NCBI GenBank assembly: GCA_973895155.1
Contig: OZ316894.1
Span: 18,514,805-18,578,804, forward strand
Source of the DNA: Marsupella aquatica
Taxonomy: Eukaryota > Plantae > Marchantiophyta
Length of the DNA: 64,000 nt
Reading direction: 5' to 3'
Part shown: in pieces, positions 3,001-61,026 of the stretch
Layout: the number at the start of each line of letters is the position of its first letter
Position numbering within the stretch: the stretch's first letter is position 1
The notes under the pieces: model-generated
What the model was told of the DNA's origin: nothing
Database searches by the model: none
Seen by the model: the letters and a program-made list of their open reading frames with translations, nothing else
Position numbers and translations under genes: made by a program

Positions 3001-3376
3001 TAATCATTTCAGTGAGAAAGGGGACTGGGTGGCAGACCTTTGTTGTGGAACTGGGTCAACATTGGTGGCTGCACTTCTCAACTCTCGGAATGGGTGTGCT
3101 GTTGACAAAGGTGAGACTCAGGTAGAATTTTTGAGGAGTCGGATTATGACATTGGAATCTGTTTGGACTCTATACGATGAAGCACAAGTGTCCGGTGAAG
3201 GTGGCCAGGGACAAGAAGTTCAGCCTCCGGTTGGTGGGCAGTTGGGAGTCATTGGTACTAGCATTTATGTGGATACTGATGACCAGGAGGAGCCTGAAGA
3301 AAATGAGCCAAACATTGAAGAAAAGCTACCTAGAACACCGGACGACGGGGAACTCAATGATATGTTGTTAGATTAG
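1..3376 (+). pseudogene. ParB/Srx-like domain + beta-class N6-adenine/N4-cytosine DNA methyltransferase (multi-exon, 5' end outside window)
   Basis: One frame after removing GT-AG introns 883-1012 and 2108-2260; in-frame TAGs at 109-111 and 1757-1759. ParB-like VRPVDRLHVENIK...YRVIGGNHGARAK. MTase motif IV LHVGDIRKL...LAIADIPYG precedes NPYQKPIAL...SEKGDWVADLCCGTGSTLVAA..R...VD (motif I), the beta-class order. Confidence 0.85.
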
Positions 3377-15798: not shown

Positions 15799-15967
15799 AA
15801 GCGCTCCACATTTTTTTTCCTCCCGATCAATTCGTCAGCCAAAGGGACAGCGGACAACATTTTTCTCTCTGATCCATAATTCGGACGATCCACAATTCGG
15901 ACAATCGGAAGTAGCAATCCGACGAGGGAGAAACTGACAAAGAGGGACGACCAAGAGCGAAGTCCTT

Positions 15968-25531: not shown

Positions 25532-25667
25532 GAAAATTCAACTTAATCAATTAACCTCCCTGCTCCAGCCTAAGGCTAAACGACACCTCGTAGGAGTTAG
25601 ACGCTTTCTTGCAGGGAGCCCACCGAGGGCCCAACAGGTAAAAGCAACAGTGCCGCCTTAGGTGACC

Positions 25668-27474: not shown

Positions 27475-28435
27475 CGAGAGAAGCCATTGGAATTGTCACC
27501 AGAGGGTCAAAGCCCGAACCAGCTCTGGGCCGCAACAGCAGGCATGACTAAATAATTTTCCTTGACGCCATCAGGTTGATTCTCCTGGTTCTCCCCGGAG
27601 CGCACATCCTGTCCGGAATACCTATGTTTCAATTCTTGACGGGATGTATCGTGGGAGGTGGACGCATGAGAATCATGTGTCGGTGGTTCCGACCGAGCAA
27701 CAGGGTTAGCCTAGTATCTAGCTCCACCTTCGGCATCGCGCCGGGAGGTCTTTTCTCTCAAAAGAGCAGGTCCAACTCCACGACCATGATAGCCATAGTT
27801 GGGGCGGGTGTTCTCCATATGTTACCAAGTGTAGCCAGGTCTAGAGGATTCAACAGTATACACCAATCTCCCCGCCCACAGGTCCACCCTATGATGTTTG
27901 TTGATATAGACTTCCGTGCCGAGAATTCTTCTCCAGGGATAAAATAATCAGCTCACCAATCGACAGCAGGTGCTATCAACAGAGCGCAGCGAGTCCCCAA
28001 ATCTATAGCCAAGTTTAGCAGTTTCCCTATATCAGTCACTCTACATTGAGGTAGGATCACATCAAATCAGATTCTTCCACCACGCTCACATGCCTTATCG
28101 CGCAAACACTGCTTGGGCTCCCTTGATCAACTCCACCAACTACTTTAGGGTGGACAAAAACCGCGGCCGTGAACCTTGCACAGTGCCCTATTCATGTGAA
28201 AAAAACCTCCGGCTTCCAAAATCCCCCCAGATGGTTTGATTGATAGCAGAATCACCTCTGTCTAAGAGATAAGCAAGATTAGCACATGAAAAAACCATCC
28301 AGTCGATCAAAAACCCGAGAGAAACCCAAACCCTAGTGCACCTCAGCTCCGTCAGTTCTCTTCTTCAGCTCCGTCAGTCCGTCGGTGCCCCTTTAGGAGA
28401 CAAGTATTAATTTTTGTTTGTTTATGATTGAATAG

Positions 28436-29409
28436 GTGCCTTGTAGGGCCTGTCCTCCATTGGTCTCTAGTCAACTATGGCATGATGCATTCCTAGCTGG
28501 TGCTAGATAGTTGCTTGCATCATCAGTTGAAGACCCCGAGCAATCATGTACCCCCGCACATGTTCCGGCAGATGTTGTTCATGAACCCATAGTGGTAGAG
28601 TTGGGCATGGTAGGGATGATGCACCGCCCCCTACTAGGGTTCTACGCACAAGACCATGTTCTCATAGACGTCGACAACAACATGTAGTTCTAGACACAGA
28701 CCCATCCCATGAGCACTTTAGAAGGAGTGTTATGCCTCCACCAGGGGAGGAGTACATAGAAGTTGAAGGGAGATTGGGCTTATCATATGTGACGGGAAAG
28801 GCAATTAGTGTCTTCAAGGATTTTGACCCTGAGAGTTTTGCGATTCCTCGTGGCCTAGCCATTGATATCCCTATACATATATGGGGTCGGCAATGGATAG
28901 TGAAGGCATCGACCCTTGGCGGGGAGGTTGGATTAGGCTTATGTGCTTTGGAGGACATTGAGGTCCCTCCAAAGCCTTGGCGTCGTGGCTATGATGGGGA
29001 ACACCTTTTCCCTTACATTGGGCCTGTGTATACATCCAAGAGTTGGAACATCCTCTTGCGCCAACATCCAGCTTGGGGGGTATATGCATTGCAGATGGAC
29101 TCAGACCCAGATGAGGTCCTAAGGAGGCCTTGGCATTGTAGGATGATTGATGGGGACCCTGTGCGTTCAGATAACATAGCTGGGTACATCAATAGTACAC
29201 ATGGTAGAGGGAGTGGACTCCAGCCTAATGTAGAGTGGGCTCAGATTTTTGGCCCACCCACTCCGCCTTACTATGTCACACATATGGATGATCATGTTAT
29301 GACAGTAGCCATATGGACCCGAGTACGGACCATTAGGGCGGGTGATGAGTTGTTTTGTGACTATGAATGGAATGCACCCAAGATGGGCATTCGATCTGGC
29401 CACACTTAG
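28436..29409 (+). pseudogene. SET-domain exon inside CACTA-A
   Basis: GLGLCALEDI...PYIGPVY...YALQM...IDGDP...NIAGYINST...PNVEW...RTIRAGDELFCDYEW. Phase-0 acceptor at 28435; one TAG (28508) and one frameshift (~28600) upstream of the intact SET ORF 28732-29409. Confidence 0.8.
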
Positions 29410-29518: not shown

Positions 29519-30377
29519 AATGCATATGTTAAGCCGGATGTTGGGGTGTTACCACGAGCTATGCGCCAACACCTTGTGCAGGCCATGGAAGATTGGCGAC
29601 ATGCCTCTCTACCACCAGATGGCGATCCGGATGTTCCAGAGCAGGAACCAGATGCCTCCCAATCAAGAGTTGATGAAGATAGGGCAATGGATGACTTGAT
29701 GCACCAATTCTATGACATAGAGGATGGTGATCATGACATGGCTGATGGGGAGAACATTGAGGTCCCACTTCCACATCAAAAAGGTTCAAGGAGTTCAGCC
29801 TCCAAACAGTGGGAGGAAGCACGTCAACATGCGCAAACTCGGATATTTGATGGATCACGCTTGTCTCGTCTTTCAGCAATAATGTTGTTGTTGAACTTGC
29901 AGCAAAGACATGGAGCAAGCAACCTACTTCTTGATGATCTGTTTCGGACATTGCATGATTGTATCTTGCCAGAAGGAAACAACTTGCCAGACTCTTGGAA
30001 AGAGGCAAAGAAGGTGTTGAAGTCCATAGGTCTGCAGTACGAAGTCATTCATGCTTGCGTGAATGATTGCGTTCTGTTTAGAGGCACTTATAAAGTTGCA
30101 ACGTCATGTCCTACATGTGAGAAGCCTAGGTTTCGTGAGGACATGTTGACGGGAAAAGTCCCTCAGAAGGTCATGATGTACTTTCCTCTTATACCTCGTT
30201 TGCGCCACCAATATAGATGTGTTGAGTTGGCTGAGTATATGGTTTGGCATTCCCAAAATCGCTCAGATATGAGTTCACAACCACCCACCATGCGTATGAT
30301 GGTTGACTCCCCTGCAAACAAGTTTGTGGAGGAGAGATGGGGTGAGTTCCAAACTGACCCACATCATGTTCGCCTAG
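29519..30377 (+). pseudogene. CACTA-A TnpD transposase, 5' part (interrupted)
   Basis: LPEGNNLP, IHACVNDCVLFR, CPTC, YFPLIPRL, ...DPHHVRL| break at the insertion. Confidence 0.9.
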
Positions 30378-30782: not shown

Positions 30783-31850
30783 CTAAACAAAGTGCTCCTT
30801 ACAATGTGTATTTGAGCACGTGCCCCTGTCTCCTTTACTATCTACCCTAGTGTCACGGTTGCAAGTCCCTTTATCTTCAGGGAGCTGAAACTTGGTGGTG
30901 TTGTTCCTAATGGCTATAATCTCCCGCAAAAAGTGTCTGGGATTTTCTCTATGCGGACCTGAATAGTCCCTTCCTACAAATGCTTTAGCAAGTGACGTGA
31001 CAAGTGCATCGTCAAGTTCTGCCTCAGGACGTAAACTACATATACGATGCTTCACGTTCCAAGGAATCTCATTGCTATTGAGGTCCAACACACTATGTGT
31101 AAACAGTGACTTCCAAATTTTTGTTGCACATCTCTTACTAAGTTGATCATAAGTAATTTCATTTTTTACCTTGTCTCTCTTTATGTGCAATAGAGACCAC
31201 AGTGGAGAGTTAAGAAGAAGATAACATCTAATGTCACTTGCATGGGATAGTTTCTCAAGACAAGGCCAAAGAATTGTTAGAAGAAAATTATCTCCACCAT
31301 TGGCATGCGTGTAGGGCACTGGAAATAGTCCGATCATGCTTGGGTTGGCAAATGCCTTAAGGGGGGAGTCATCCACAAGGAGGGTGTTGGTTTCATCATA
31401 TAGATTTCCAAATCCACTCCATACCACCCGAAAATCCTTCAGTAGCACATTTGCCTTTCCGTTTGTAATGTCATGCCTTTGAATGCCTGTGTCAAAGGCT
31501 TCCACTTGTGTGAATACAAACTTAAGTTTCAACCGCTCCTCAGCAGTGAACATCATGTTCAGCATTTTCACTGTTCAATGTACCCCAGCACATGTCCAAA
31601 TTGCAACGTCAAATCGGTCAAAAACCAACTTTAGAAACTCATGGAGCCCTGGCCTTTCTGTGTACATGCGACTAATTCCATTTTTTCTATCCCAATGCAC
31701 TCCACTTGGGATCACAACATTTCTGGATTTGCCCTTGCTTTGGAATTCAACTGAATCCCAAAGTATTTTGTTAAGATCCAAAATCAGCAATTTGCGCTTG
31801 ATGGAACAAGGTCTTGGTTCTGCAAGTGCAACAAATACCAATCTTAGAGA
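30783..31850 (-). pseudogene. FCP1/NIF-like HAD phosphatase-fold domain
   Basis: KLLILDLNKILWD...RPGLHEFL...FDVAIWT, in-frame TGA at 31575, ...LLKDF..VW...NTLLVDDSPLKAFANP. The DxD motif reads DLN. Confidence 0.75.
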
Positions 31851-32303: not shown

Positions 32304-34240
32304 TCATAATTGACATCGGAGGTACTCTCCTCTACCCAATAAGGTGCAGACCAAACCGGAGTTATCAATACTCCCATACTCAATGTGAATACTCAGAGTT
32401 TTTGAATGTCCTAATTTACGAAGAGCGCTTAGGACATTCAGTACAAGATAACCCGAATGGACAGTTATCATCACAACAATGGTAGGATTCCGTGGTAGCT
32501 CTACTATATATTGGAAGAGGACCAAAATCTCTACTTCAGTCCACTCTTTTTGCTGAAGTTGGTTGAAATCAACAATTGCAAGAGGGCATGTTGGAGATTG
32601 TTCTTCCAACGACTCCGGATCCACAGTCTTCATTAGGTTGTTACTAAAAAATGTGACCCACGGCTGGGTCCAAGAACTTGTCCCACCGCCAAACTTTTGA
32701 CAGTAAATATCATCTAGACGCATCACCAATGTCATTGGCAATATCTCACTCTCCTTTGTATGATTTGACTTCAACAAATTTGTCAACCATACATCGCCAG
32801 CTGCTCTTCGGCACCTGTTCAACTCCGAATCGGGACCCAATAATGGGAGGACTTCAATCACTTTAGCCCAATCAGTATCTGCTGGGAAGTGTTTTGGATC
32901 CTTCTTGAAGTAGTAATCTCCAATAAGAGACTTCAATTTGATCAATATCTTCACCTCCTTTGCAAACTCCTCCATCGCTGGAACATCTGACTTATTAGTC
33001 GGATCTTTCTTCAATAAAATCTGACCCGACTTCACCTTGTTCAAAATTCTGGTCAAATCTCTATTTGAGATTTCACCATCAAAACAACGAAACATGGCGA
33101 CGGTTATCGCCTTTTCGGACCTTTTGTTTCCCTGTGTACCAGCCCCATCAGGAAGTTTTCCATCAATCCACATCTGGCACACTAACTACCATAACTCGAA
33201 AAGATCATTCTCGGCAAAAAGTAACCAGTATACATTTTTCAAGTCTTTTCTCCCCATGGTCATCCTTGCCAATGCCAGATAATCCTACAGTCAAAAATTA
33301 GGGAGAATGTTGTAAGTTATCTACAATCAATGAGATTTGATAACACAATCGCTTGCTTGGACAGAGACCATCTCCGTCCAAGCCATAACCAAAAGTAGAA
33401 TGAAGTAAAATCTACAGAATGGAAGGTCTCACTCTTGGACAGAGACCATCTCCATCCAAGTCATAACCAAAAACATATTGAACTAAAATCAATGTAACGG
33501 ACGGTCACACTCTTGGACAGAGACCATCTCTGTCCAAACAAGAAAAATGTTTCTCACCTGAAATTTTTGACTCTCTTGGGCGTTTGATTTGTTGTCCCCG
33601 TGCTTTGGCTTTCTTGGTCTTCCAGTTTCAAGGAATTGTTTTCTTGCATGAACAATTGTATCTTTGAAGCACGATTGAAACACCATCGAAGAATTGATGG
33701 CATTTGATCGCATTGAGTGCTCAACCAGTATAGCCGATGGCGTAAGGTCTAACAATAATCTAGCCTTCCTATATTTTAACTTTTTTGCCAAAACTGTGAG
33801 CTTGGCATCAGTTTCGGCCCACTCAAGAACCCATTTGGCCGCCCTAGCAGAATGTTGCCCACTGACGGCAAGGAAAACAATCTCGCCTTTCTTCACTCCT
33901 GCAAGAAGGTCTTTGCGGTCGTTCTCCGTGCTGTCAAAATGAAGCAGCTTTCTAAGTTTTGGATTGTAAGGAAGAAGGTCCGCAACGTGAGGTTCATGTC
34001 TAGGGTTTTTCACCATGGATTCGACTATGTGCTTCACATGGGCACTGTTGAGCATCCTGTAACATAACCTTGCCGAAGCTGGATAAATTTTCTCCACTGG
34101 AATAGAAAATATTTCATTTATCCCAAAAGTATAGTACTGCTCTATTCTTTGGAGAACATCATTCCCTTCTAAGACCTTCTTCACCTCCGGGGCATCAAGT
34201 TTGTCTCCCTCATCCTCTGGGAGCATCTATACGTCCGTCG
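32304..34240 (-). pseudogene. ParB-like gene of element G, 3' exons (ParB domain + possible degenerate MTase region)
   Basis: YRMLNSAHVKHIVESMVKNP...FLAVSGQHSARAAK...HSMRSNAIN aligns by eye with E1 (HVENIKMLLMKNP...IGGNHGARAK). Downstream ILNKVKSGQI and PLAIVDF parallel E1 LLNRVIGKKI and LAIADIPY. Confidence 0.65.
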
Positions 34241-34243
34241 GAG

Positions 34244-34771
34244 TTGACCGCGCATGCTTGGGCTGAACAAGAAGTCTGGGAAGCAAAGGCACGGCTTGCT
34301 GATGTCCAATATGGACCTGTACTCAACAAAGGACAGAGCTCTAGAAGGCTGAAGAGTATGTTGGCTGAGGAGACGAAGCAACCAACCCCCATTCTGAAAG
34401 GGCTAAGCATGGTATTTGTGGAGGCGGGAATTGGAGAGGTTAAGTGCAAAGTGTACAAGTCCACGGTGCTTGACCTAGGTGGGACAGTGGAGGAGAATAT
34501 AACAGAGGACACCACTCATGTCATTACTAAGTCATATCCCAAAGCCTGCCGCAAGTTTGGGAAGGGAGACATTCGCTTTTATGTCATGTCCCATAATGTG
34601 TTTGTGGTTTCATATGCTTGGCTTGTGGAATCAGTAGCAGCTGGGAAGTGTCAAAACCCAATGGACTATGATCTTTTTGAGGCCTGGCCACGGAAGGGTC
34701 AGGATCCTTACAGAGAGGACTATGAGACAACAAGTGAGGAATGGGTCATTAGCGATTCTGAATCAGAGTGA
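34244..34771 (+). CDS. BRCT-domain ORF (5'-truncated), probable CACTA-B cargo
   Basis: ILKGLSMVF...LGGTVEENITEDTTHVIT...VVSYAWLVESVAAGK...DY matches the BRCT consensus. Confidence 0.75.
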   Translation: MTAHAWAEQEVWEAKARLADVQYGPVLNKGQSSRRLKSMLAEETKQPTPILKGLSMVFVEAGIGEVKCKVYKSTVLDLGGTVEENITEDTTHVITKSYPKACRKFGKGDIRFYVMSHNVFVVSYAWLVESVAAGKCQNPMDYDLFEAWPRKGQDPYREDYETTSEEWVISDSESE

Positions 34772-43752: not shown

Positions 43753-45237
43753 GCAATAGTCTTGTCAGTTTTATGTTTCTTCTTTACTGGCTTCTTCTCA
43801 GGTTCCTTCGACAGTGTCTCAGTTTTCTTGCGCTCCTTCTCTCTTTGTCTTCGCTTCCCTACCACTTGTTTGGAGGCTGTCCCGGCCGTTGTTCCTGCAG
43901 TCCCGGTTGTTGTCTCCTGAGATATTTTTCTAGGCTTCGGAACTTCTTTGTTAACAACTACTGGAGGCTTGTTCACCACTACTGGTGCAACATTTGTAGG
44001 CTTGTTCACCACTACTGGTGCAACACTTGTAGGCTTGGGTAATGATTCTACCCACTTTTTTGCATTATCCATTGCAAACTCCTCCGCAAATATAATTTTG
44101 TTGTCAAGGAAAACACCTGATTCCGATGATAGGAATCCTGCCTTGTCAAGCAAATTATTTAAAATCCATGTCATCGGAAATGTATAATTCCCTTGGTGTT
44201 TATGCATATTAAGCTTCACATATTGAAACCCATACATGATGTCAAGTGGAAGAATCCCCTTCACTCCAACAGTCACCTTTTGAGTTGAATACGACTTAGG
44301 GAAAAAGCCCATTGCCAACACGCCAAGTTCTCCAGCTGCAGACCACTCAACATTGAATTCTGAAGAATACGCCTTTGATGGTAGATGTAGTTTAACCCAT
44401 CGTATCCTTTCATGGAGCTCAAGAATGACGGAAACAAACCCTCTTCCTTCAATTCCAATGAAGACTACAGGTCCAAGTACAAGAGTCTCCTGATCTGCAG
44501 TTCTGACCTATATGCACAAAATGGGATCCCGTCTCGTTGACGTGCTAAGGAAATCAAAATCAACTCTGGAGAACTCAAGGCCCCAACAAAAATCTTCTCT
44601 GCTCTGCTCCAACAAGAATCCCTCGGAGCAATCTGCGTCTGAAATCTGTGGTTTCAATGCATTTAGATAGCTCCCTGCAATAGTCCCATCCAGGCATATT
44701 AGTTTGGAAATCTTACTTTTGTAATTGACAAAAATTGGATAGGGATCATCTCTATCCTCTATTTGGACAGCGATGATCTCTATCCAATTTGTAATAAAGA
44801 TCATCTCTGTTCGATGAGAGGATACTGACGATCGTTATTATCATCTCTATCCTCTACTTGGACAGGGATCATCTCTATCCAATTCCTAATAAAGGTCCTC
44901 AGCATCGTCTGATAGGACATCCTCTATCGTCAGTTTGGAAATAAATGATATCTATGCAATTGGACAAGGATGATCTCCATCCATTTGGATAGAGATCATC
45001 TCTGTCCAATTCCTAATAAAGATGACTATCTTCTATTTGGACTCTACTTGGATAGGGACCATCTCTGTCCACCACACAAATATTCAACTTGTTACTGGGA
45101 TACTCACTTGGATTGAGCGATTGAAAGGCTCTGGAATCCTCGAGGGCCGTCTCCACCACGTCCTCAATGGATGAGAGGTCTGTCTCCTCTGTTGGCTCAC
45201 TGATGAGACACACTGGAATAGGTCTGGATGGCTCCAT
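43753..45237 (-). pseudogene. 5' exons of the element-G ParB gene (separated from the 3' exons by CACTA-B)
   Basis: Same strand as 32304-34240; frame cut at the CACTA-B end (KKKHKTDKTIA|). Its intron carries the same palindromic repeat as the intron at 33350-33540. Confidence 0.55.
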
Positions 45238-46135
45238 CGTGTGACATGTGGCCTTATGGACATGTGGAGGATTGCAGAGCGTTAGATCTAGGGCAATTAA
45301 CGTGGCGGCTATGGGGATAAACTTTAGTGTGGAGGCAGAGCGAAGGAGTGCAGAGGCGTCGGAGTGAAGGAGATTGGAAGCGAATGAGGCGGAGGAGCGA
45401 GCAAAGGAGCGCAAGAGCAGGAGTGGAGAAGAGGAGGAGCGGACAGAGGAGGGAGGAGAGCGAGCGAGGAGCGAGGAGGGAATGAAGAATGAGGCCCAAG
45501 TGGGACCTCCTGCCTCCTTTACCCCCCCGAGGCAAGGCAAGGCACACTGAACATGTGGGAGGCCGAGGCGAGTGGAAAACCCTAAATGCACGGCTGCCCT
45601 AAAGTGCGCCGCCCGACCTAATCCACTCACCGTTGCTTAAGGCTAATCACGCATCGCCTTATCCATAAGGGCGATCTTCAACAACTGGTATAAGATACTT
45701 GGGGTTGTCCGGTTGGTCCTCATTTGGTATTTTCATTTCTAGATTTTTGTTCTGTTCCTCAACCAGGTCGGTTCATTACGGAGCCCCATTGAGATACTCT
45801 TGTTTTCCAGACAGAACATCTAGTTTTAATTTCTTCCACACCCCTGAAGCATTTAGTTTACCAGGTTACTGATAACTACCCCTTCAACACAGTATTTTAA
45901 TCCTTGGTTTGACAACATAAACTAAATTGAGTTTTGGGTTCAAGAATCATTTCCATTACAGGTAACTTTAAACCTAATTATAGAATTGTAGCATATTCCA
46001 TTGATATCCGCAAATTTAGGAATTACTATATCTAAGTTAAGGTTGAAGTGAAAAAATCCCAGCCCAACTCACGATTGGGATAATCTCAATCCAACCGTTC
46101 TTTGCTCAAACATTAAATTAGTGTGTAGAGTCAAT

Positions 46136-46790
46136 TGTCCGTACAGGGGTCATCCCTGTTTGCTATCTGGATAGGGATCATCTCTATCTGCTGTTTGGAT
46201 AGGGATGATCCCTGTCCAATATTTGGATAGGGATGATCCTTGTCCACCGTAGAGTATTGTAGAGGACCATATGAACTATAGCACTTTATTGGATCCTCTG
46301 GTTGGATAATGATCCCTATTCGCCGTTTGGATCCTCTGGTTGGATAATGATCTGTATTTGCTGTTTGGATGGGGATGATCCCTGTCCGCCATTTGGATAG
46401 GGATGATCCCTGTCCACCGTTTGGATAGGGATGGTCCTTGTCCGCCATTTTGATAGGGATGATCCCTGTCTACCCTTTCAATAGGGATCCGTGTCCGTGG
46501 TCGTTCTCCAGATGATCCCTGTCCGCCGTTTGAGGTATTTGCTTGATTGGACCCCAATATGAAAAGTTTCCTTGAATCATCCCTGTCAGTTGTTTGGACA
46601 GGGAATAGACCCGATCCACCATTTGGACAGGGATCAGGCGTGTCCGCCTTTTGGACAGTGACAGACACTATCCGCCGTTTAGGCAGAGATGATCCTTGTT
46701 CGCCGTTTGGACACTGACAGACCCTATCCGTCGTTTGGACAGGGATCATCCCTGTCCACCGTTTGGACAAGGATCATCCCTATCCGACGT
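46136..46790. repeat. Array of ~25-bp imperfect palindromes TTGGAYAGGGAT-N-ATCCCTRTCCAA (~28-bp period, ~20 copies)
   Basis: For example ttggatagggatgatccctgtccaa at 46195-46219. Further copies at ~33356-33540, ~44735-45070 and ~47990. Confidence 0.85.
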
Positions 46791-46977
46791 CTAAATTGGG
46801 ATCAGGGATCTTAGGGCTAGATAGGGACTTTTTGGGGACCTATTATTTTGCTTGATGGGGATAATCCCGATATGCGCACTGTCCTTGGAGAGGGTTGACA
46901 CCTATGTGCTTCCTAGTTGGGACCATTCTTAACTAATACTTTACATTTAAAATTGTGCAGGTGAATACGTTATAGGA

Positions 46978-49900
46978 ATGACCGGAATATTTTTGAGAGG
47001 AGACAATGTGATATTGACAAATGATGGTTACGATGTTGCGAGTGGGACAGTTCAAAAAGTCAACCCGCAAGATAGTGTTCAAAAGATATTGTTGAGAGAG
47101 AATCGAATGGGAGTTCTCATTGAGAAAGTTTTTGACCGAACCACAAAACTACCATTTCCGATGCCTCGGGCAGAAAACCTTTTTGATGCCATTGATTCTT
47201 GCGTTATTTGGGATTTGTCTTGCGCATATCTATCAACAACAACAAATTCTCAAAAACGCATTAGTGTAGGTAGTTGTTCAAATAGACCCGAGAGTAATTT
47301 GGAGAAAAATCCAATTGTAGAGGAGGACTCATCGACCACTCCGAGGCAAGGGGATGAGGTTGAAATGTTCATCTTTGGGTGTTGTGTAGCCCTTGGAGTT
47401 GTTTTCAATACAAATCCAATGGAAAGATGTCACAACATTTTACTTGGTGAATCACAGATCAGTGTGAGGGTCACTGATGTCATTCATGGGAGTAGGGTTT
47501 TACCTTACAAACATAGTGGGGCTGAAACAATTGACCAGGCAAAAGACTCATGGGTTCTCTGGGACGTGGCAGATGTCCGAAGTAGAAAGAGTTTCTCAAA
47601 GAAGGATGCGGGTGATGATATCAACATAGAGCGGAGTTTTGTTGTGGAGTCTCCCTCAGCTGAAATTTCTAAAACTAATTGTGACTATTTCCAACGGTCA
47701 AATTGGATGTCAGAGTTGGTCGAACTATACATCGGTTCAGATCGAACCAATAGGGTTGCCACGGGGACCATCACTGTGCCTCAAGAAACGGCGGCGGTTG
47801 ACGATGAAATGCTTGGTGAGGACCATGTAGGGATTGCTGTGAAAGATGTGGTGGAATCACAATACTTTCCCAACTTCCATAGGGGAGTAATTACTTTGGT
47901 TCGGTGGAGAATTGATTCAACAAAACTACTTGCAAATGGGAAATTTTTGTCGGACATTTTGGTTGAAGGTTCAGAGAGGATGGAGTCGGTGGATAGGGAT
48001 GATCTCTATCCAAATGTAAATGATAGGGGAATGTTGCGCACAAGGCCATACAATTTCAACAAGAGGACTCATGTAGATCCGATTGAAAAGAAGAGAAGGC
48101 TATTGGAAACCAAGGCAGTTTCAAAAACAACGGAAGCTTCGATTGATGAAATTAAAAGAGAGAATTGTTGCAAGCAGAAATGTTGTCTGACTATGCCAAG
48201 AGAAGACATAGAAGATATTCGGATAGAATTTCACGGGATGTCTAGTGAGTCAAAAACATCACACATTTTCAACCTCTTCCACTACAGAGAAGATGATGTT
48301 CGTGATAAGGGGCACCATGTTCTCAAGGGTATGGTCGTATGTAGACATGCATTTGCAATCATCCATGGCTTTAGCCACACAAAATATTATGACTACAAAA
48401 GGAGATGTGGAGGGCTGCAAAATTGGGTTCCATGGAAACACGGGCTCCATGAAAACAAGGTCAAATACCTTGCATGCACGAGCTCTGTTGGAGGATTTTT
48501 TGACTCGAAATGCAGAGCCCATGCCTCATATACCTTATGCTGGGGCTCATTGGACAGACTCCACTGAATATCGTCTTCCAGCATGTTACAAGAAGCTGGA
48601 GATTTTGGAAGATGTGAGAACAAAGATGAAGGAAGAGGGGCTTCCTCCAATTACAAAGAATACTCTGTACAAGATTTGGAGCAAATCATTCGCAAACTTC
48701 AGTTTCCATAAAGATGTTGCATTTGCCAAGTGTACTCTTTGTTGTGAATACAAAGATAGTTTGATGCGAGAAAGAAGGAAAAAAGAACGTGCTGAAATTG
48801 AAGAAAAACGAGCGCAACATCTTTGTGAGAAAATGTCACGTAGATATGTTTACTATGCTCATCGAGTGATGGCTAAGCAACATCCAGGGGAATATCTTTG
48901 CATCATTCACGACAAGATGGATCAAGCAAAGACGTGGATTCCAAAAATGGTCAGTACTCCTAAATCGCTTTCGGGTCATGGGATGCCGCTACCTATTGCT
49001 CTCACAGGGATGTTGACCCACGGAAGGGATCCAGGAGTCTATGCACACTTTAGTGTCACTGGCCTTTGGCCAGGAGATGCCAATTTCACGGTGACATCCT
49101 TGGCTAAGTGTCTTCGAGACCTTGAAGAGTACAATGGAGACAAGACAGGTGACATGTTGGATGACCTTTATTTGGAACCTCATAGACCTTTCTTTCAAGC
49201 CCTTCTTGACTTTGATGCATTTTTTAAGGGATATTTGGAACCAAAGAGTATTCCAATGAATAGGTATATTGGTTCTGAAGATGCAACCGAGAGTCAGACG
49301 GAGACGGTCTTCACCCAACTTGGTGAGGATCAAGGAGGGGACATGCATGGGGAACAAGGCAGTCCATCTTTCAAGCCCTTGCCAAGGCACCTAACATTGC
49401 AAATGGATAACTCAGCAAAGGATAACAAAAACCAGGCTGTCATGGCATTTTGTAGTGAGCTTGTGAGTAGAGGAGTATTTGAAACTGTTCAAATGTCTTT
49501 TCTTATGGTTGGTCGTACGCACGAAGATGTTGATGCACTCTTTTCGAAGGTATCATATCAAGTTCAGCACAAGGAAGTTGCAACTCTCCTTGCTCTTATG
49601 GCAGAGATTTGGGAATGTGAGAGCATTCATCCAGTTCCCAGATTGATACAAGAAGTTGCATCTTACAAAGAATATCTTCAAACTTTCAACGTTAAAGATA
49701 TTCAAGGTCACTCAAAACCTGTATCATTTCTTTTCTCTATGAGAGATAATGTACCAATATTTCAGTATAAGTCCCATGTAAAGCAACCTTGGGCTCCAGT
49801 TGGTGGAAGGTGCATTTGGGCAACAGATCTGACAACAAATTCCCTTCTTTTACCTAGTGGAGAGCCCTTAGCTAAATCCATTGGAGAGATACACAAAAAA

Positions 49901-50719
49901 TCTGAAGAGATTATCCCATTTCTTACCAAGTACCTTGATTTTTTGAGAAGGAGTTGCACTGATGAGACATCTATAGCATATAAGGAAAGATTTCCTCTTG
50001 TGAAATATTGGGAGAGAATTGTGGAGTTGTTGACAAATGGGCTTGCACTAGAAGGGGAGGGAAGTACTCAATTTCCCTTGAAAAATGGATTTTGGCCTAA
50101 GACTAACCATGGCACTGGTTACAAGGTCAACCAACCGGATCAAAGTGGTCCTCCAAGTGAAGATGAGGAGAATGCGGAGATGACGGCTCTTCAAAATGAG
50201 GTCTTGGAAGAGATGGAAGATCAAGCACCACCATTTATTGGATCTCGAGCTGAGAGAGAACAAGGACGGTGGATTCCCCTACAGGATATTTGTCAAGGGA
50301 ACTTTGTATTTCTTCGACCCGAGGATGACTGGGAGAATAAAAATGGTGGAGGTCATTTCTGGTTGGTGAGAGCTTTGGGTTCGGTTGACCCTAAGCATGA
50401 AGTCCCAACTACATCTCCAACAAACCCTCCTCTGCCTCAACAATATGCTCCAATGTTTCCAGTCAAATGGTGGAGGCCTAAACACTCTAAACTTGATGTG
50501 ACTGAGAGTGCACGGTATCTAAACTGCTTCATGTCCACTAAGACATGGGAGCGAGATCCAGGGTTTGGTGAGAACGCTCAACATTGGCAGTATGCAAATT
50601 CTGCAATGTATGGTTTTAAATCTGGCATGAAAGAAGAAAACATGGCGGGTAGAGGTTTGAAGATTCCTCGAAATGTTCTACAAACTATCCAAAGTTATCT
50701 CCAAAGGATGGACAAGTAG
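46978..50719 (+). pseudogene. Sola-like (DUF7869-type) transposase of element G with three N-terminal Tnp1-like repeats; one frameshift ~48400
   Basis: CCKQKCC, VCRHAF, CTLCCE, IIHDKMDQAK, LQMDNSAKDNKN, VGRTHEDVDALFS, homologous by eye to 3542-7083. ORFs 46978-48567 and 48245-50719 overlap. Confidence 0.8.
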
Positions 50720-50964: not shown

Positions 50965-51290
50965 TTGGTACACTTTTTAGGCCAAATGTACACTTTGTTG
51001 CACTCAAAGCTACACTTTCTAGACCAAATGCACTTAAATGTACACTTTTTAAGCCAAATGTATGTTTTTTTCACTCAAATGTACACTTTCTAGGCCAAAT
51101 GTACTCAAATGTACACTTTTAAAGCCAAATGTACCTATTTTGATGTTCAAATATACACTTTTCATTGCCCAAATGTACACTCTTTAGGCCAATTGTACAC
51201 TTTTCTATCCCCAAATGTACACTTTTCATTGGCCAAATGTACACTTTTTCAAGCCCAAAAGTACACTTTTCATTGCCCAAATGTACATAA
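50965..51290 (+). repeat. Right subterminal repeat array (ccaaatgtacactttt) of element G
   Basis: About 14 copies, now separated from the right TIR by the P-like insertion. Confidence 0.85.
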
Positions 51291-51837
51291 ATCCTCGGGG
51301 GTCTCACTCCGCGAAAATCTCATATCACGTGCGACGAAGTATAGGGTCCGTTAATTGGGTTTCTCGGAAGACTTAAGAAGATTTGTGTAAGAACAATAGG
51401 GCCAACTTTATATGTTGGACAACTTGTAAGAATAATAGGGATATTAATATTTTTGACTTTGTAGATGGAAGGCATACAAAGAAGTTAGGGGGTCTTTGTG
51501 TCGGACTATGTAAAGTACACGTGTCACTATGTCATTGGTACACGTGGCACACATAACATTCTCAATATATTTTCCTAATTTTTCTAATATGTTAACATGG
51601 CAAGAATTTGAGAATGATCTGGTTTTATGGGGACTCACGTTTAGGGTTTGACCGGGATTAAGTTTGAAATTTTTCTGTTTAACGTGTCTCGTTTACCTCA
51701 ATTGGCCCTTGTCAGTCCCTCCCGTGTCGTTTCCCTCCACTATCCCTTTGGCCCCACCCGCTCTTTGCCTCAACAGAGTCTCTTTTGTTTGTACCTTGCA
51801 GCAAATGGCCTAAACGGGGTCTAAACCAGTTGTGCTC

Positions 51838-52660
51838 CTGCTTGGAGTGAAGGTCGGATCGAGCGAGAGTGTGCTCTCGACTGCACTTGGAGTGAAGGTC
51901 GGATCGAGCGAGAGTGTGCTCTCGACTACACTGTTGCTGGAGTGAAGGATCGACTCCTGTTGTGCTCTCGACTGCACTGCTGCTGCGGCTGGAGTGAAGG
52001 ATCGAGCTGCGTTGCTGCTGCGGCTGGAGTGAAGGATCGAGCTGCGGCTGGAGTGAAGGATCGAGCTGCGTTGCTGCTGCGGCTGGAGTGAAGGATCAAG
52101 CAAGATTTCTCGGAGAAGGATCGAGCTGCGTTGCTGCTGCGGCTGGAGTGAAAGATCAAGCAAGAGTTCTCGGCGAAGGATCGAGCGAAGGAGTGAAGGG
52201 GAGAGCGAGAGTGAAGGGGAGAGCGAGAGTTCTCGGCGAAGGATCGAGCGAAGGATCGAGTGAAGCGCTGCTACTTGGAGTGAAGGGGAGAGCGAGAGTG
52301 TTGCGCTCTCGGCTGTGCTGTTGCCGTTGCTGCTTGAAGTGAAGGATCGACCAAGAGTTCCTGGCTGCGCTGCTGTTTAGAGTGAAGGGGAGAGCGAGAC
52401 ATCTCAGCTGCGCTGCTGCTTAGAGTGAAGGGGAGAGCGAGACTTCTCAGTTGCGTGCGCTGATTAGAGTGAAGGAGAGAGCGAGACTTCTCAGTTGCGT
52501 GTGCTGATTAGAGTGAAGGGGAGAGCGACACTTTGCAGCTGCGCTGCTGCTTGAAGTGAACCCGGGAGTGAAGGGGAGAGCGAGACTTTGTAGCTGCGCT
52601 GCTGCTTGAAGTGAACCCGGGAGTGAAGGATCGAGCAAGAGTGTTGCGCTCCGGGAGGTG
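51838..52660 (+). repeat. GC-rich minisatellite built on gagtgaagg units
   Basis: More than 20 variants of ggagtgaaggatcgagctgcg... / agagtgaagggggagagcgaga. Confidence 0.85.
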
Positions 52661-54591
52661 GGTGTCGAGAGTGTTGCATTGCTGCTTTCTAAAACGGGAG
52701 CTGCTAGCTTGCTGAAACGGGAGGTGGCTACTGCAGGGAGTGTTGCGATATCTCAAACCGGAGTGCCAGGATTGGAGCTGCATTGCTGCGTTGCTCAATC
52801 GGGAGGTAGGCGCTGCCTACTTTGACGATCGTACTTGCTTGCTTGCTACTATTTGACGCCCAAATCTATCACGCATGGCACACCTAGAGTCGATCTGGTA
52901 GCGGTCATAGACGAGGAAGCACCTGATCTGCCCGTTTAGCTTTTCAACTATAAAATTCCTGTTCTGAGCTCCGTGAATGGCGATAAGCTCTTTGAGTATT
53001 TTGTCCTCCAGAGCTCGCCATGCCCTCGCAGATAAGGTTTGGAGCCACTGCTGAGATCCAGCTCCAACTTCCCAGCCGAATACTAGCTCAGTATTGTCGT
53101 CATTTGTCTCGACGTTGTCCATACTCATCTCTCCTTCTGTGTCCGCATCGACGACTTGACGCACATGTTTTTTGGATGCATCGTTAGAGTAACCGCGAGT
53201 ACAGGTCTCCAATGATTGCACTTGCCATGATTGACCACCTTACATGATCTCCATCCATGGGCTGGACCCCAGGAAAAAAATCATGTAACTTGACTTCTGT
53301 CGTCCCCCACACACCCGCACAAATCTGGTTCTCTATTACATGCCTTGGTGTCCCGTTGGCTGGTTCCTGCAATTTTCTTTAAGTCATCTAGAAGAGAAGA
53401 CTTCTTTAAGTGTTTACTCAGCCAGGGGGGACCACAGCCTCCAGCCATACTGGGTGGCGGGCCTGGTCAAGACGTGGATGACGCTCGTGCTTGATTTTAA
53501 ATTCTCTTTTGTTTCTCAAGCTTCTGGGCAAGGGCATTACCATTCTGGATTCTGAACTTGATCCTATTCAGGTTAGCTATTCAGGTCTGTTGAGCGATTG
53601 GGTTATTATTTTATTGCTGTAGTAACATGCATGGCCAATTGGTTGTCTTCATGTAATGGGAAGTTTTTGAAACTTAGAAATTGAATGGTGGTTTCAATTT
53701 TGTTCACAGGTTGCAAAAGGAATTGTAGAGGTTGTCATCAGCGCTTGCAGCAGTGAGCACCAACACTTGCGGTGAAGCAGTTTGCTAGAACACATAGTGT
53801 ACCTAGTGAATTGTAAGTTGCCTGTCATTGCACGTCTAATCGTCTGGCCATTCACCGAGTATAAAAAAATAGTGCCATGGCTATATTGGGCATTACATTA
53901 GAAGCGAATTATGAGAAGCTCCTTCTGCAGCATCCAGATGAATGTTGCTGGTGTGAACCTTGTGTCAAGTGCAGGGTTGGTGATGGGAATTTTGAATGGT
54001 TCCATTGCTTCTGCTTGAAAATGCGTGGAAGGCTTGTTACTAGGACATACATGGGAAAGCATGGCAAAGTTGTCACACGTCGTTGGAAGTGCTCTTGTAT
54101 AAGGCCAACCATTTGGCCTCAAAATGAGTGTCTTTTACGCAAGATTGTCATCCCGGACACGCTTGACATTGTAGTCCCTGATAGTATTCCACATTCAACT
54201 GAGCTTGATATTGTAGCCCCAGATAGTATATCAGATCAAGCTAAGGTTACAACCCATGGATGCTTGACATTGTAGTCCTTGATAGTACATGGATGCGTTG
54301 TTCATATATGACTAGGCCTTTGTTTGCAAGGCTGCAATTGTACCATCCATGATATATGAGAATATTTTTCATTCCCATTATGTGGCAAAGTTTTGCAAGC
54401 TGGCATTGTATTTATGTATGTCTTGGTTGGTGGGTGTTCAGGTTGCACTGTGTAGTTGACTTCATCTGGGAGGGAGGTTTGCAGATCATTGGAGCAGGTG
54501 CTATGATTAACCTTATCTTTGTCTATGGATTGCTCACTATCATCATGTCCCCCTCATATGTGATGTGCTTTGTGATGATTGCAGTTGAACC

Positions 54592-55266
54592 ATGCCGACA
54601 AGGACTTCAAACATAAAGAAAGCAACACAGTCCTCTGACAGAGGAGCCTCTTTGGAAGAGGTATTGCGTATTCCGTTGTTCTCTGAGCAAGAGATTCTAC
54701 AAACTAGCCCTCATGTTTGTGCAATTTGTGAGCATGGTGGGAAGTTGGTAATTTGTGATGGGCCATGTCACAGGCAATTTCATTATGTGGTTGGAGATGA
54801 AGCCCCTAATGACTCTTGCCCCTGTGTAGTCCTTCCCCTCCATCATGGAGGGAAGCCATGGTTTTGCCCAAATTGTAACCAGGACCAGGCCATGTGTTAT
54901 GGGTGCCGCACTGTGGGACCGTCACCTACAATTGTGCGAAAATGCTCTGATCGTTTTTGTGTACGATTTTATTGCTTTGGGTGTTTGGTAGCTGATGCAA
55001 AGTCCTGCCCACTGCATACATGTGTGACATGTTATCAGAGTCTTGAGGGTCAGATGGTCAAGAACATGGTACAATGTCTACGATGTCCAAATGCCTGGCA
55101 TACAGATTGTCTCCAGATGATCAAAAGCAAAGGGTTCGCTCATGATAGGGACATCTGGGACCATGAAGCACATGGACAACAGCGACAGATGTTTTATTGC
55201 CCCCGTCATCCTATTGATCCACACCTCAAGACTCCAATCAGGGACCACATTTCATGGCTCCAATGA
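54592..55266 (+). CDS. EDM2/NSD-like tandem PHD-finger protein (cargo)
   Basis: CAICEHGGKLVICDGPCHRQFH...CPNC...CYGC...C...C..FY...CPLHTCVTC...CLRCPNAWHTDC...FYCPRHPIDPHLKTPIRDHI. The last motif matches the EDM2-type HxIDxxLxTPxRDHI. Confidence 0.8.
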   Translation: MPTRTSNIKKATQSSDRGASLEEVLRIPLFSEQEILQTSPHVCAICEHGGKLVICDGPCHRQFHYVVGDEAPNDSCPCVVLPLHHGGKPWFCPNCNQDQAMCYGCRTVGPSPTIVRKCSDRFCVRFYCFGCLVADAKSCPLHTCVTCYQSLEGQMVKNMVQCLRCPNAWHTDCLQMIKSKGFAHDRDIWDHEAHGQQRQMFYCPRHPIDPHLKTPIRDHISWLQ

Positions 55267-55761
55267 TCTGAATAATGAACAAACCTATTACTTAGGTTTC
55301 AACGTCTTAGTGGGGTATGAGCAAGGCACATACTTAAGGTGCATCATGGGTGGTAGTACCCAATTTTATTAGTGTTGACATTTTGTCATAATTAAGGTCA
55401 CTAATAGTGCTGCATTTTGATGAGCAGAAGCACTAAACTTCGGGAATTGTTAGAAAAGCAGGCGAAAAGGATATTTTGTCCAAAGATATTTTATCCAACT
55501 TTAGCGGTATATCATGATTTTCACTGAATACATTTGCATGTATGATGGATTGCATTATAAAGTGTTTTGGCCTATTAGCACTTCTATTGTTAAATGTATG
55601 CTGACATTATGTACATTACATGAGAATGTGTATGTTGTCATTGCATCTCTTGAAGATCCTAATGTGTTTCCCTTGTGTGTATTTCAAATGTATTTGTGCA
55701 GGTCTTTCTGTTATCAACTCCAAAAGCAATGGTGCTATGCATGTTCTAGATTTGTATTGCA

Positions 55762-58700
55762 ATGGCAGCCCCTAAACCCAACTCTGTTAAATTAATACGC
55801 AAAGTTGGGGATGACAAGGCTGATTTACCAATTTGTGTTTTGTCATTCAAAGAAGGACACACCCTACATGATTTTAGGGCTCGTATTGCCTCTACTCTAG
55901 ACTTTGACTTTGATTTTTGGGATGAGAGACTTCCTGGTCGAGTGAAACTTGTACATGAGAAATTAATTGATCTGTCTGAGCTGGATGGAAGAGTTATTGT
56001 TGTACAACAAGAACTTGGAGATGGTGGGAGGATCCCACCAGTACCCTGTCATCCTTGCACTCCTGCATCATTGGGTCCAAATACTGGGACACCACAACTG
56101 GGGCCAACGGCACTAGCACCCTCCCCTGTAAGGGCTTCTTTTGAGTCACAATTGATGGGAGATGTCCCATCAAAGCTATGGAAAGATGAGTGGATGAGGT
56201 TAGAGAAATGGGTACATAAGAAGGGTTATGGTGATCACAATTGGAGAATTCGTACCTGGGATGAGGGGACAGATGTTCGAGGGCATCTGGAGTGTCTTGA
56301 ATGTAGGGAAACTTATGGCAATGCAGACAACTCTCAGAACCCTAAATCCATCTCCAATTGCTTTAGTAATTTTAAGACCAAACACTTGGTCTTCAATAAG
56401 CACAAGGATAACTATTGTCGGAGAAGGGGCATTCCTTCTACTTTGGTTCAGGTAGCAGACATCTCTGAGAAGCCAGAATATGATCATGCAGACGCCATCA
56501 AAGTAGGTGTTGAGATAGTTCAACGATTGAATGCTGAGCTTGGGGATGATGGCAAACTATTCTCTATTGTTCCTGATCCCAGTACTCCTGAGTATGTAAA
56601 CAGGTCTTTCCTGTTTAAGGTTCGATGTACTGTCTGTGGAATGCTTCACACTGACTTGTGCCCCAAGAAGCTTACCTTGGAGCCCAATTTGAGGACACAC
56701 TTAGTGAGTCGAGATCACTTGGATGCATTGGAGACTAGGCATGACACAAAAATGCTTGCCTTGAGGTCTGGGAAGAGGGGCAGGCCAAAGAGGACTGATT
56801 CTAGGGACCTACATCCTGGTCAGAGCGGGATTTTGAAGTTCTTTAAAGATGATGGGTCCCGGACAGGCAGCAGTTCAGGTTCAGGTTCAGGTGTGTGTGA
56901 ATCTGTTGATCTTGGTCTGAGTTTGCTTTGCTGGGGATTATGGGTAGAGAGAGGTGTGCCTCGACTGTTATGGAAGGGTATATCTTATGATATTTCTGGC
57001 ATTTTAGATGATCAGTCTGGGGGAATTACATGGCATTGTGAGCCAAGTTGTTGCTTGGATGTTTTCCATCCAAGTAGAGAGAGTGTTGTGAGTATAGCAG
57101 GCTGTTTTAGACACAAGGATTGCTTGAGGTTATCACAGAATGGAGGAGGATTTGAAAATCTAACTTGTAGTGAATGTGATTCTATAACACTAGAAGATGA
57201 TTTTCGTGGACGGGTGCACAGGGAAGCGGAAGCAGTAGTCCACAGAGGGAGCCGAACCACTGCTGGTGGTATACGTTTGGATTATTTGACCAACACAGAG
57301 TTAAGAGATCAAGTGCACAACCTGAACTCTGTGCGACGAAAAGAGCGTTGGTTGTTAGCTTTGCAGGCTCAGAAAGTATGTGCCTTGAGCACCAGGAAAC
57401 GAAAACTAGAGGAGTTGTTAGGAGTTGCAGCAGACAGGAAGGATTTGAGATTGTTTCTTAGGAGTATTTTGAATGGACACAGGAATGGTGCATTTGGTGG
57501 TAAGGAGGGTTTGTGGGATTTCTTGAAGGATGTAGCTCGCAATTTAGGCAGGAAGCCAAAAGGTAATCGTTACAGTAATAGGACTCGAGCTATTGCTCAG
57601 GCTATGTTCCAATTTGGGGGCCGTCAAGTTGCTCATTGTTTTGCACGAAACTTGACAGCCCCTAGCCTTGTGACCCTAAAACGTGATAGAGCAAAACTCA
57701 CACCTTTTCGAACCGGGTTACGGAAGGAAACCTTTCAGGAGATTGCTAGAGTGTTGTCTGCTGCAAAGCACTCATTGGGCATTGAGGGGGATGTGCCTGT
57801 TATCTTTGCTGAGGATGAAACAAGGATCAAAGAACGCCCTAGGTAATTGGAACTGGACATTTTTCCAATTGTTTTTTTAATGACTTTACAAGTAGCACTT
57901 GGCTGGAATTGCTGTGATATTGAAAAATTGCATGTCTGTGTTTCAGGTGGGAGGCAAAGTATGATACTCTCATTGGTTTCTGTGGACCTTCAGAGCAGCA
58001 TGTATGCTCCTATGGTTTGGAAATTCTAGTTGGTGAAGGTGATGAGGGGTATGATAAAATTGTAAGTACATTTGAACAATGCCCCAAGTGCATGTATGCC
58101 CGAGTTGTGATTGTGAATCCTCTGCATGAGTCCTTACCTAAATTGGCTGTGTGTGCACTTCCAACTTGTAATAAGTTCACAGCTTCTTGGGTACGAGAGC
58201 ATTGGGTCCAGTTAAAGGCTTTTTGGGATGAATATTGTAGAGCTATGGTAGGCCCTTTGCTTGGACATGCTAGTGATGGTGATGCACGTCGCCGAAAGCT
58301 GATGCTGGAAGATTACAGAGGGCAGAATGGATCATACCCAAGGTACGGAGTTGGGTGGGAAGGGTGGACATACTCTGTTTCAATTCTACCAAATGGAGAT
58401 TTGTATGGCTTTGGTGACCAAGACCAACCTCATAATGGGAAAAAGATGATAAACCCCTTAGACAGAGTGTCTTCTTTACTGGTGCTAGGAGATCAACATG
58501 CATCTTTATCTTATGTAGCTAATGTCTACAATCATTATCCAATTCATGAACATGGCATGGCTTGGGATGATGTGAATAGGACTGACCGGCAGAATTGGGC
58601 AGGTCCACAACGAATAGCAGCAAGAAGAGTGCAGCAATGTCTGAAAGATATGTATGAGAGGAGAGATGTACAACATGAACGAAGTTTAGGAACTCAGTTG

Positions 58701-60338
58701 TACTTGGAGATTTGTGCAGATTACTTAGATATTTTCTTTTCTCCAGTTCATGATTTGAGGTCCCGTATTGTGTTAGCATCCAAGGTTTCATTCTTTCTAC
58801 GTTTGTGGAGATTGTGGTTGAGGTTTGGTGACCATTCAGTGGGTGGGAACTTTGCAGCACACACTGAGAAAGACATGATGTCTATTCAGGCTTTTCATGA
58901 TGTTAACATGTCATGTCATTTCATTGTGCTGTTAATTTGTGCCTTTCGAGATAAGTTCCCACATCTAGGTGTTCCCTTCCACTTGCTAGGTTCAGATTGT
59001 TGTGAGATTTTCTTCAGCAAGGTAGGAGGCATGAGTGGCCATGAGCGGAATTATGATTTTGGCTCTCTATTGGATAGTGCTGTTGGACTGAACCGGCTTG
59101 CTGCCCTAGAATATGGACCAGAAGGCTTGAAGATAGGTCGTTCACATAAGAAACAAGATCATGTATGGGGGAAGATTCATCCTATAGGGGAAGGGGAGGA
59201 AGCACCAAATCTACTTGACTATTCTCTCATTGAGACTAATGAATTAGTGGTTGCAGCCCTTAAAGAAGGTTTTGTTGCTGCTAAGGATCTTATGCATCAA
59301 TTGCAGATGTCTCCACGAAGTTCCTTACCAGCAGCTAGAAAGAGATGGTGGACATGTCCTTGGGTTGTGGAAAGTGAGACCTGGCCACTAGAGGTGGTTC
59401 TGAAGGAAGCAATTGTTTGCAATGATTCTGAGGAGCAAGTAGAGCACCAACCACCAGACATAGGTCCTCGCCCAACTGGAGATTTTCATGAATTGGAAGA
59501 TCCTGAGGATGATCTGAATAGAATAGATGCATGGTTAACAGAACCAGATCCCATTGTTGTTCCTGAGATGCATTCAGATGATGTACACAGAGATGATATA
59601 CAGTTTGATGTAGACCCCTCAGATGAGCTTGAGACATTAGGTCATGAAGTTCGGCATGTGTTTGGATCAGTTGTCCATGCTGTAACTAATGTACAGAATC
59701 GTACCAAGGTAGTGCCTACTGTTACTTATGAAGGCAAGGTGATTTACAAATCCACTCTGGTAAGCCAGTTGGTAGGAAATCCGCATTTGTCAAAAGATAG
59801 GCTGACAAGGGTGAAACAAGTGCTATACTATAGTACTGGCAAGAGAAAAGTGCAAGAAGTCAATCCTAACTCATGTTTTGTTGATGTTGGCACTGATTGT
59901 GCAATTGCATTTGAGTCTGATGATAGTCCTGCTCCAAGTACTAGATCTGGAAAAAGAAAGGGAGGAAAGAATAAGGTTGTGGTGGAGGCAATCTCAGCAG
60001 GTAAGAAATATTTTTGGTTGGGTCGGATTGTCCAAATGAGACAGAAGTATGGCAGTAGGTGGGGCAATTGTCGGTCACCAATTGATTTGATGGATAGGCC
60101 AACTCCACTTGCAGGGCAATCAGGTAACATTTGTGAACTGTTGTTAAATTGGTATAGTCCTATTGGTAAGAGCAAAAGTGAATTCAGATATGATACCACT
60201 GATTTGAAATGGATGGATATTGAAATGGTCATTGCTAGTGTTAGTTTAACCATGAAAGAAGGGGTTATGGATCGTATCTATGTGTTGGATCCAATAGATA
60301 GACGTGCTTTGGATCAGTATCTTCAAACAATGGTATGA
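55762..60338 (+). CDS. P-element-like transposase, two exons (55762-57842, 57947-60338), ~1490 aa, apparently intact
   Basis: IFAEDETRIK (D), GHASDGDARRR (D), DQPHNGKKMIN (DxxH), GSDCCEIFFS (E); N-terminal C2H2-like fingers and AT-hook KRGRPK. Spliced frame has no stops. Confidence 0.78.
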
Positions 60339-60350
60339 ATATCATGTTAC

Positions 60351-60430
60351 TGTTTAGTTTTTGAGAGTCTGTATATATGTTTTATTTTGTTGTTTAGTTT
60401 TTGAGAGTCTGTATATATGTTTTATTTTGT
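60351..60430 (+). repeat. Perfect 40-bp tandem duplication in the transposase 3' UTR
   Basis: tgtttagtttttgagagtctgtatatatgttttattttgt x2. Confidence 0.9.
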
Positions 60431-61026
60431 TAATATTAGTGGGTGTAGTGGGATAGGATAGGGGGTGACGGATTGGCAACTTGAGATCCTTTCTCAATTA
60501 GGGGTTCAATTCCCCTCCGTCACATGTTACATCTCTCAACATAAGTTTTAAATGGAGTATGGATGGAGCATGGGATTGGTGATCAATGGGTGGAATGGAT
60601 TATTTATGTTGTGACCTTAAAGGCCATCCCACTTATGCACGTAAGGTTTATATTGGGATGACCTTTTAGGTACACAATATAAATGATGCATTGAAATGAT
60701 CAAAGTTTAAGGTCGACAAAGGTGCAAGAACTGTTGCAGGGCGTGCCATGTCTGACATACGACTTCACAAGGTACTGACATAGACTTATCTTTTCTTTCT
60801 AGGCATTTTATATTGATATGTGACACTTTACTTCACAAATTATAGGGGCAATACAATTTGGATTTTAGACTCTTAGAAGAAAGAAAGAGGGAGGAAAAAA
60901 AATTTTCAACTTAATAAGTATGGGGGTCTAGGCATGAAAACGTCGCAGGTGATGGGGGGGTCCTCCATATAGTGAGACCCCCGAGCATAAATCAAATAAT
61001 AATACACTTTTAATGAATAGGCTGAT

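Follow-up and report, generated by a model that had tools for sequence, protein, structure and literature searches.

The question raised by this locus is why a free-standing gene for EDM2-like PHD fingers lies inside a transposon, and what such a gene could do there. The window, i.e., the whole stretch of 64,000 nucleotides analysed here, had been described in an original prediction as carrying a captured reader of heterochromatin, used for anti-silencing, as a decoy or to steer insertion. The matter bears on the choice of chromatin by plant DNA transposons and on their escape from silencing, which are understood in few cases, such as VANC and the chromodomains of retroelements. In the open literature, covered by titles and the starts of abstracts and without subscription journals or Repbase, we found neither an EDM2-type gene in a transposon nor P-like elements in bryophytes, and neither is addressed in the excerpt available of a DDE survey (10.1101/2021.09.26.461848).

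54592 to 55266, plus strand: PHD ORF, without intron, from ATG to TGA, 224 aa, no internal stops

This ORF bore out the prediction of an intact frame with tandem atypical PHD fingers. It consists of a short Lys/Arg-containing N-terminus, a triple PHD cassette of the EDM2/NSD type with 24 predicted zinc ligands (C43-H206) and an EDM2-type closing motif, its C-terminal end being ...HPIDPHLKTPIRDHISWLQ. In Pfam, PHDvar_NSD passed the cut-off (E=5.8e-8), and PHD-1st_NSD, PHD_NSD and PHD gave weaker matches that did not; in the Atlas, the top cluster was a plant PHD_NSD cluster (0.93). An AlphaFold model of the protein, built with seven sequences, was of insufficient quality for use (pLDDT 44.6). 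The view of the ORF as a stand-alone gene rests on identical start and stop sites in its relatives. An AG acceptor lies 7 nt 5' of the ATG, and an in-frame stop closely upstream in the window copy was abolished by a 1-nt insertion in four of four runs, so that an extra 5' exon is possible.

The PHD gene shares its strand with a transposase gene located downstream, each having an acceptor directly before its ATG, and both are enclosed by the ends of a transposon:

51294 to 60985, no strand assigned: whole P-like DNA transposon, 9,692 bp, delimited by terminal inverted repeats (TIRs), target-site duplication (TSD) and empty-site joints
51286 to 51293, no strand assigned: left copy of the 8-bp TSD, single copy at empty sites
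51294 to 51308, plus strand: left TIR, 15 bp, perfect
51841 to 52660, plus strand: GA-rich tandem repeats of the left arm (families D6, D9, D10 and D15)
53877 to 54275, plus strand: Cys-rich ORF of 132 codons 5' of the PHD gene, which may be no gene
55762 to 57842, plus strand: transposase coding exon 1, with Cys/His-rich motifs and the putative first catalytic Asp, D685
57843 to 57946, plus strand: predicted GT-AG intron of 104 nt; with it removed, the frame runs through 1,490 aa uninterrupted by any stop
57947 to 60338, plus strand: transposase coding exon 2, with SDGD (D804/D806), DxxH (853-856), GSDxxExFFS (E1047) and a P-element fold
60971 to 60985, minus strand: right TIR, 15 bp, perfect
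60986 to 60993, no strand assigned: right copy of the 8-bp TSD

The chance expectation for such a combination of TIR and TSD within 20 kb is about 3e-6, and the termini of the element are CT..AG. Joints in public contigs at 51284>60997 and 51293>61002, together with loose ends, lack the whole unit while retaining a single TSD copy, and thus mark empty sites in other copies of the larger host element into which the P-like element is inserted; perfect ends and empty sites in turn point to a recent insertion. The P-like element is intact, recently mobile and apparently active. A further joint (51550>60750), seen in two runs, represents a short internally deleted form and suggests a non-autonomous derivative of roughly 490 bp. 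The element was covered in 30 of 30 bins in all four runs, which came from three organisms, one study being possibly the window's own source. Near-identical pieces of both the PHD and the transposase regions were present in every run; among the contigs listed, none spanned both genes. Contrary to a single-copy origin, which would have spoken against the original prediction, the ORF recurs within this near-identical family (4/4 runs); the result is confined to that family and does not extend to a transposon setting for distant relatives. The Cys-rich ORF at 53877-54275 had neither a Pfam match nor a usable Atlas match.

Transposase homologues, 66 in number and including named proteins of Riccia and Adiantum, align over both exons, and the plant carrying the element is accordingly likely to be a seed-free land plant. 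The D, DxxH and E columns are invariant in 29 homologues, and we infer catalytic roles for these residues. Sequence searches with the transposase in PDB and Pfam returned nothing relevant, and the sole sequence link to the P superfamily was a distant homologue from Nymphon with TNP-like_RNaseH_N, the P/THAP9-type RNase H domain; the element was placed by fold search only. With a model of the transposase core (pLDDT 88), the best matches were 6PE2/6P5A (prob 1.0, TM 0.56), and structure comparison with the Drosophila P-element transposase gave a Z of 22.4 and an rmsd of 3.6 over 309 residues, the next Z being 6.8. In this model, the 1,490-residue transposase folds like its Drosophila counterpart, with a helical insertion domain.

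The element shares with the Drosophila P element and THAP9 the fold, the D-D-DxxH-E order, TIRs and an 8-bp TSD, and differs from them in its low identity (about 12-14%), in the 1,490-aa length of its transposase, in the second gene that it carries and in its probable host, a seed-free land plant. TSDs of the P superfamily are 7-8 bp long, and an N-terminal THAP domain and 5'-CA termini occur in it, neither being universal. The Drosophila P element has CA termini, whereas those of the window element are CT, and no THAP domain was matched by Pfam in exon 1. As neither trait was seen, we filed the element as P-like; the original prediction had not identified its P-element-like nature. The spacing from DxxH to E is 194 residues here and 192 in DmTNP, the P signature being that of PMC8230255. 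A Kolobok reading was rejected because the 8-bp TSD and CT..AG termini do not agree with a 4-bp TTAA TSD and RR..YY termini (PMC9587614), and hAT and Transib readings were rejected on fold scores.

The surroundings of the P-like element comprise two further transposons:

30378 to 61026, no strand assigned: host element of the P-like transposon, a 30.6-kb TIR element with a DUF7869 transposase at 46951-50719
29519 to 30377, plus strand: outermost gene of the nest, of a CACTA-type transposase (5' part), split by the host element and continuing at about 61027, with DUF4218 downstream

The host element has a perfect TIR of at least 25 bp, a duplicated CTAG or TA and 22-bp subterminal repeats at both ends, and the P-like element lies 33 bp inside its right end. 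The nest is three levels deep (CACTA-type gene, DUF7869 host element, P-like element), and the PHD gene, inside 51294-60985, occupies the third level, in agreement with the predicted transposon-borne location deep in a TE nest. The nest had also been taken to fit with steering of insertion. The nest itself is real, but transposon genes extend over most of the window, as established by Pfam and motif checks, so that a single nested insertion is little evidence for targeting. As a separate observation, the transposases of the P-like and host elements end in a similar beta-rich domain (59691-60338 and 50201-50719; FWL-GR/VR...W-Y/W pattern), which gave the impression of being BAH- or Tudor-like and found no support in Pfam or PDB.

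With regard to the cassette, the predicted relatedness to EDM2 was confirmed both by its position on the EDM2 side of the tree described below and by alignment: residues 42-222 of the PHD ORF correspond to residues 224-432 of Arabidopsis EDM2 (P0224), with 31% identity over 213 columns (E=1e-27). Common to the two proteins are an atypical PHD cassette of 2.5-3 tandem fingers and the closing motif, which had been pointed out in the original prediction and aligns with HEIDEELLTPVRDHVKF of EDM2. EDM2, however, has 1,297 aa, including acidic, PGR, methyltransferase-like (ELP) and proline-rich parts (PMC7529245), whereas the PHD ORF protein (P0001) has 224 and is transposon-encoded. The RFD (PF12047, DNMT1-RFD) matches AtEDM2 and not P0001, in which only 41 residues precede the cassette, and the PGR and ELP domains are missing, since the protein, like its relatives, ends with the cassette. 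Over the 25 positions before the first Cys, stand-alone PHD proteins have 0-6 acidic residues vs 8-16 in EDM2s (4 in P0001 vs 8-16 in 13 matched EDM2 rows); a conserved F-S-x-x-E...Q-x-S-P-H segment takes the place of the acidic run that precedes finger 1 in EDM2. In addition, finger 2 is shorter by 19 residues and shows a His-to-Cys ligand change.

H3K9me2 is reported to be among the marks bound by the fingers of EDM2 (PMC7472560), and the original prediction had extended H3K9me2 reading to the present cassette. In that form the proposal found no support: with the RFD, the acidic tract before PHD1, the methyltransferase-like parts and indeed all other EDM2 domains missing, such reading is not to be assumed, and the histone mark recognised by the cassette, if any, is not predictable from its sequence. 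In a hornwort, close to half of the transposons are found in euchromatin or facultative heterochromatin (PMC10952607). The top solved-structure matches were the homologous tandem fingers of the NSD1/2/3 PHD1-3 cassette, with E=4e-6 (single sequence) and 1.8e-27 (profile) for NSD2, the alignment to which ends short of the closing motif. NSD methyltransferases have SET and PWWP domains around the cassette, neither of which Pfam found in the PHD ORF, and a related NSD1 PHD tandem has only very weak affinity for H3, its ligand being a partner protein (PMC4838375).

When 1.84 billion representatives were searched with a profile built from the first seven relatives of the PHD ORF, 518 matches were obtained at E<=0.001. 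Short stand-alone proteins ranked first, and most entries below them were long proteins laid out like EDM2 (DNMT1-RFD in 61 of 150 scanned, several being also confirmed by name). The stand-alone relatives are 187-304 aa long, with a short Lys/Arg-containing start and a common HISW-like end. A quick tree, built from those proteins whose cassette was complete (139 of 225), placed the 12 stand-alone rows in one group (SH-aLRT 94). A more careful analysis of 51 selected rows (LG+G4, without a mixture model, partial members excluded) recovered all 12 as a clade (100/100) on a long stem of 1.47 changes per site, together with EDM2 and liverwort paralogues and apart from NSD-like cassettes (89/87 and 99/96). 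The sister of this clade had no supported placement, and BLAST margins were small, toward liverwort paralogues or seed-free-plant EDM2. By these relationships, the PHD ORF is a member of an old and conserved family that shares ancestry with the PHD cassette of EDM2. The liverwort paralogues, from Riccia, Calypogeia and Marchantia (P0015, P0018, P0019, P0042, P0056), are themselves a distinct EDM2-related host clade with a C-terminal PHD cassette (99/100).

Against this background, we considered how a stand-alone cassette could have come to lie in the element. It might be neutral Pack-type cargo, an EDM2 fragment captured too recently to have decayed: frameshifted variants of the ORF exist at low depth, and in so young an element an intact frame by itself proves little. 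This explanation is largely refuted and now very improbable. While identity to any host EDM2-type protein is 31-34%, it reaches 43-50% with ten stand-alone relatives that share start, stop and conserved ligands (21 of 24 positions invariant across 10 full-length members, the remaining three present in 9/10). In all four comparisons with L001 and L002, the distant relatives with DNA, pN (0.28-0.36) was well under pS (0.68-0.89), synonymous sites being near saturation, and a PHD subfamily diverged by roughly 10% had a pN/pS of 0.36 (7 synonymous and 9 non-synonymous changes, Fisher p=0.049; at least 16 changes, those among the rows listed) and no ligand changes. Conserved ligands at such identity and the excess of synonymous over amino-acid change argue that the PHD ORF is no fresh neutral fragment and evolves under purifying selection, in line with the non-neutral evolution that had been predicted.

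The same conservation could reflect a host function, if the stand-alone PHD proteins were a host family of seed-free plants of which one member was picked up by the element. The short flanking sequences, of 510 and 667 bp in L001, showed no transposase in either L001 or L002, liverwort host paralogues with a C-terminal cassette exist, one of just 280 aa (P0042, Marchantia), and such paralogues give the best BLAST scores for most stand-alone members. We nevertheless regard a passenger origin as unlikely, because the stand-alone clade is separate from the liverwort paralogues in the tree and constraint is also seen between subfamilies near the window copy. Moreover, the clade is made up of unnamed sequences taken from raw assemblies, either single or in tiny clusters (none of the 15 checked for source had a gene name from an annotated genome), and both members with DNA are broken, L001 by a stop and L002 by a frameshift, as expected of repeat copies. 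The link between PHD gene and transposon is shown for this element family only. No fused PHD occurred among the 66 transposase homologues, and a search for longer or fused PHD forms, weak in that it also missed known EDM2s, found none. No stand-alone PHD was present among the looked-up Riccia matches despite many named transposase homologues there, so the PHD gene may be dispensable. Scans of viral contigs and prokaryote genome contigs yielded no relatives; a metagenome scan with 139 candidate stretches yielded four loci, two short stand-alone and two weak matches, L004 among them being a SET-type NSD-like protein.

Alternatively, the free cassette would act as an anti-silencing mimic or decoy, binding either AIPP1, a partner of EDM2, or marks of heterochromatin and thereby altering silencing or poly(A) choice on the element. 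EDM2, in the AAE complex, promotes distal polyadenylation through heterochromatin (PMC7472560, PMC9292364; see also PMC10241880 for this background), it raises COPIA4 and lowers Mu1 transcripts (PMC3632883), and anti-silencing ORFs encoded by transposons are known, as in VANC (PMC6446971). The CpG depletion of the element's ORFs (o/e 0.28-0.33) fits a methylated history, and the common strand and acceptors of the two genes are also compatible with this explanation: as the PHD exon precedes the transposase exons, control could be exerted at read-through into these more distal exons. However, the parts missing relative to EDM2 and the long stem branch speak against close mimicry of a host EDM2, and a reader without sequence specificity would act genome-wide. 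A role as mimic or decoy appears rather unlikely.

Within its P-element-like transposon, a cut-and-paste element, the PHD ORF is an intact second gene, for which we tentatively favour, at somewhat less than even chances, the role of a predicted nuclear adaptor coupling the transposase to histone-marked chromatin. The gene would be expressed from the P-like element, and the cassette would fold on six zinc ions and touch histone H3 tails. Having neither an effector nor a DNA-sequence reader, it would probably act only as an adaptor or competitor, through a partner; the partner, most simply the TIR-binding transposase, would provide specificity for the element, and excision and insertion could then be gated or steered by chromatin state. 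The analogies for an adaptor role are RAG2's PHD, which regulates a transposase-derived enzyme through H3K4me3 (PMC12337333), and the chromodomains of chromoviruses, which direct retroelements into heterochromatin (PMC12477314). A broader history, in which P-like transposons of seed-free land plants took an EDM2-lineage cassette long ago and keep it as a separately encoded transposase partner, a counterpart of RAG2's PHD that arose independently, reads marks and favours insertion into silenced transposons, is a doubtful extension of this proposal.

RAG2 and RAG1 offer a likeness in that the PHD-bearing partner is encoded apart from the RNase H-type transposase, which contains a large insertion domain (PMC12337333), but the PHD types are unrelated and the partnership is here only proposed; RAG2's PHD is missing from ProtoRAG (PMC12337333). 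Accessory chromatin genes in transposons are already known from VANC and the Rehavkus PHD (PMC6446971), which, like chromoviral chromodomains, are transposon-encoded chromatin-handling parts (PMC6446971, PMC12477314). VANC of VANDAL is unrelated to the present cassette, and the Rehavkus PHD and the chromodomains form fusions with transposase or integrase, whereas the reader in the window has a gene of its own within a P-like element. The element offers a two-gene test system, in which a transposase of P fold is paired with a minimal cassette of the EDM2 type and the role of the EDM2 fingers can be asked without the remainder of EDM2. It also suggests that liverworts and ferns harbour a P-like lineage.

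Several other features of the window were recorded. The host element contains a NIF-like phosphatase ORF (30783-31574, minus strand), an ORF that is ParB-looking by impression and has no Pfam match (33489-34226, minus strand), a BRCT ORF (34106-34771), a nested CACTA from 35286 and, 5' of the DUF7869 transposase, arrays of a partly palindromic 28-bp repeat (44729-46831). Copia-type gag-pol and a LINE-like element occupy 15938-19457 and 22146-27495, and an ORF with a weak SET-domain match (28585-29409; E=0.003, under the cut-off) lies directly 5' of the outer CACTA transposase. Finally, at 947-6687, a second DUF7869 transposase on the minus strand lies opposite two ORFs, one of them ParB-looking and the other with an N6_N4_Mtase match over the cut-off (E=3.5e-7), a possible transposon-borne DNA methyltransferase.
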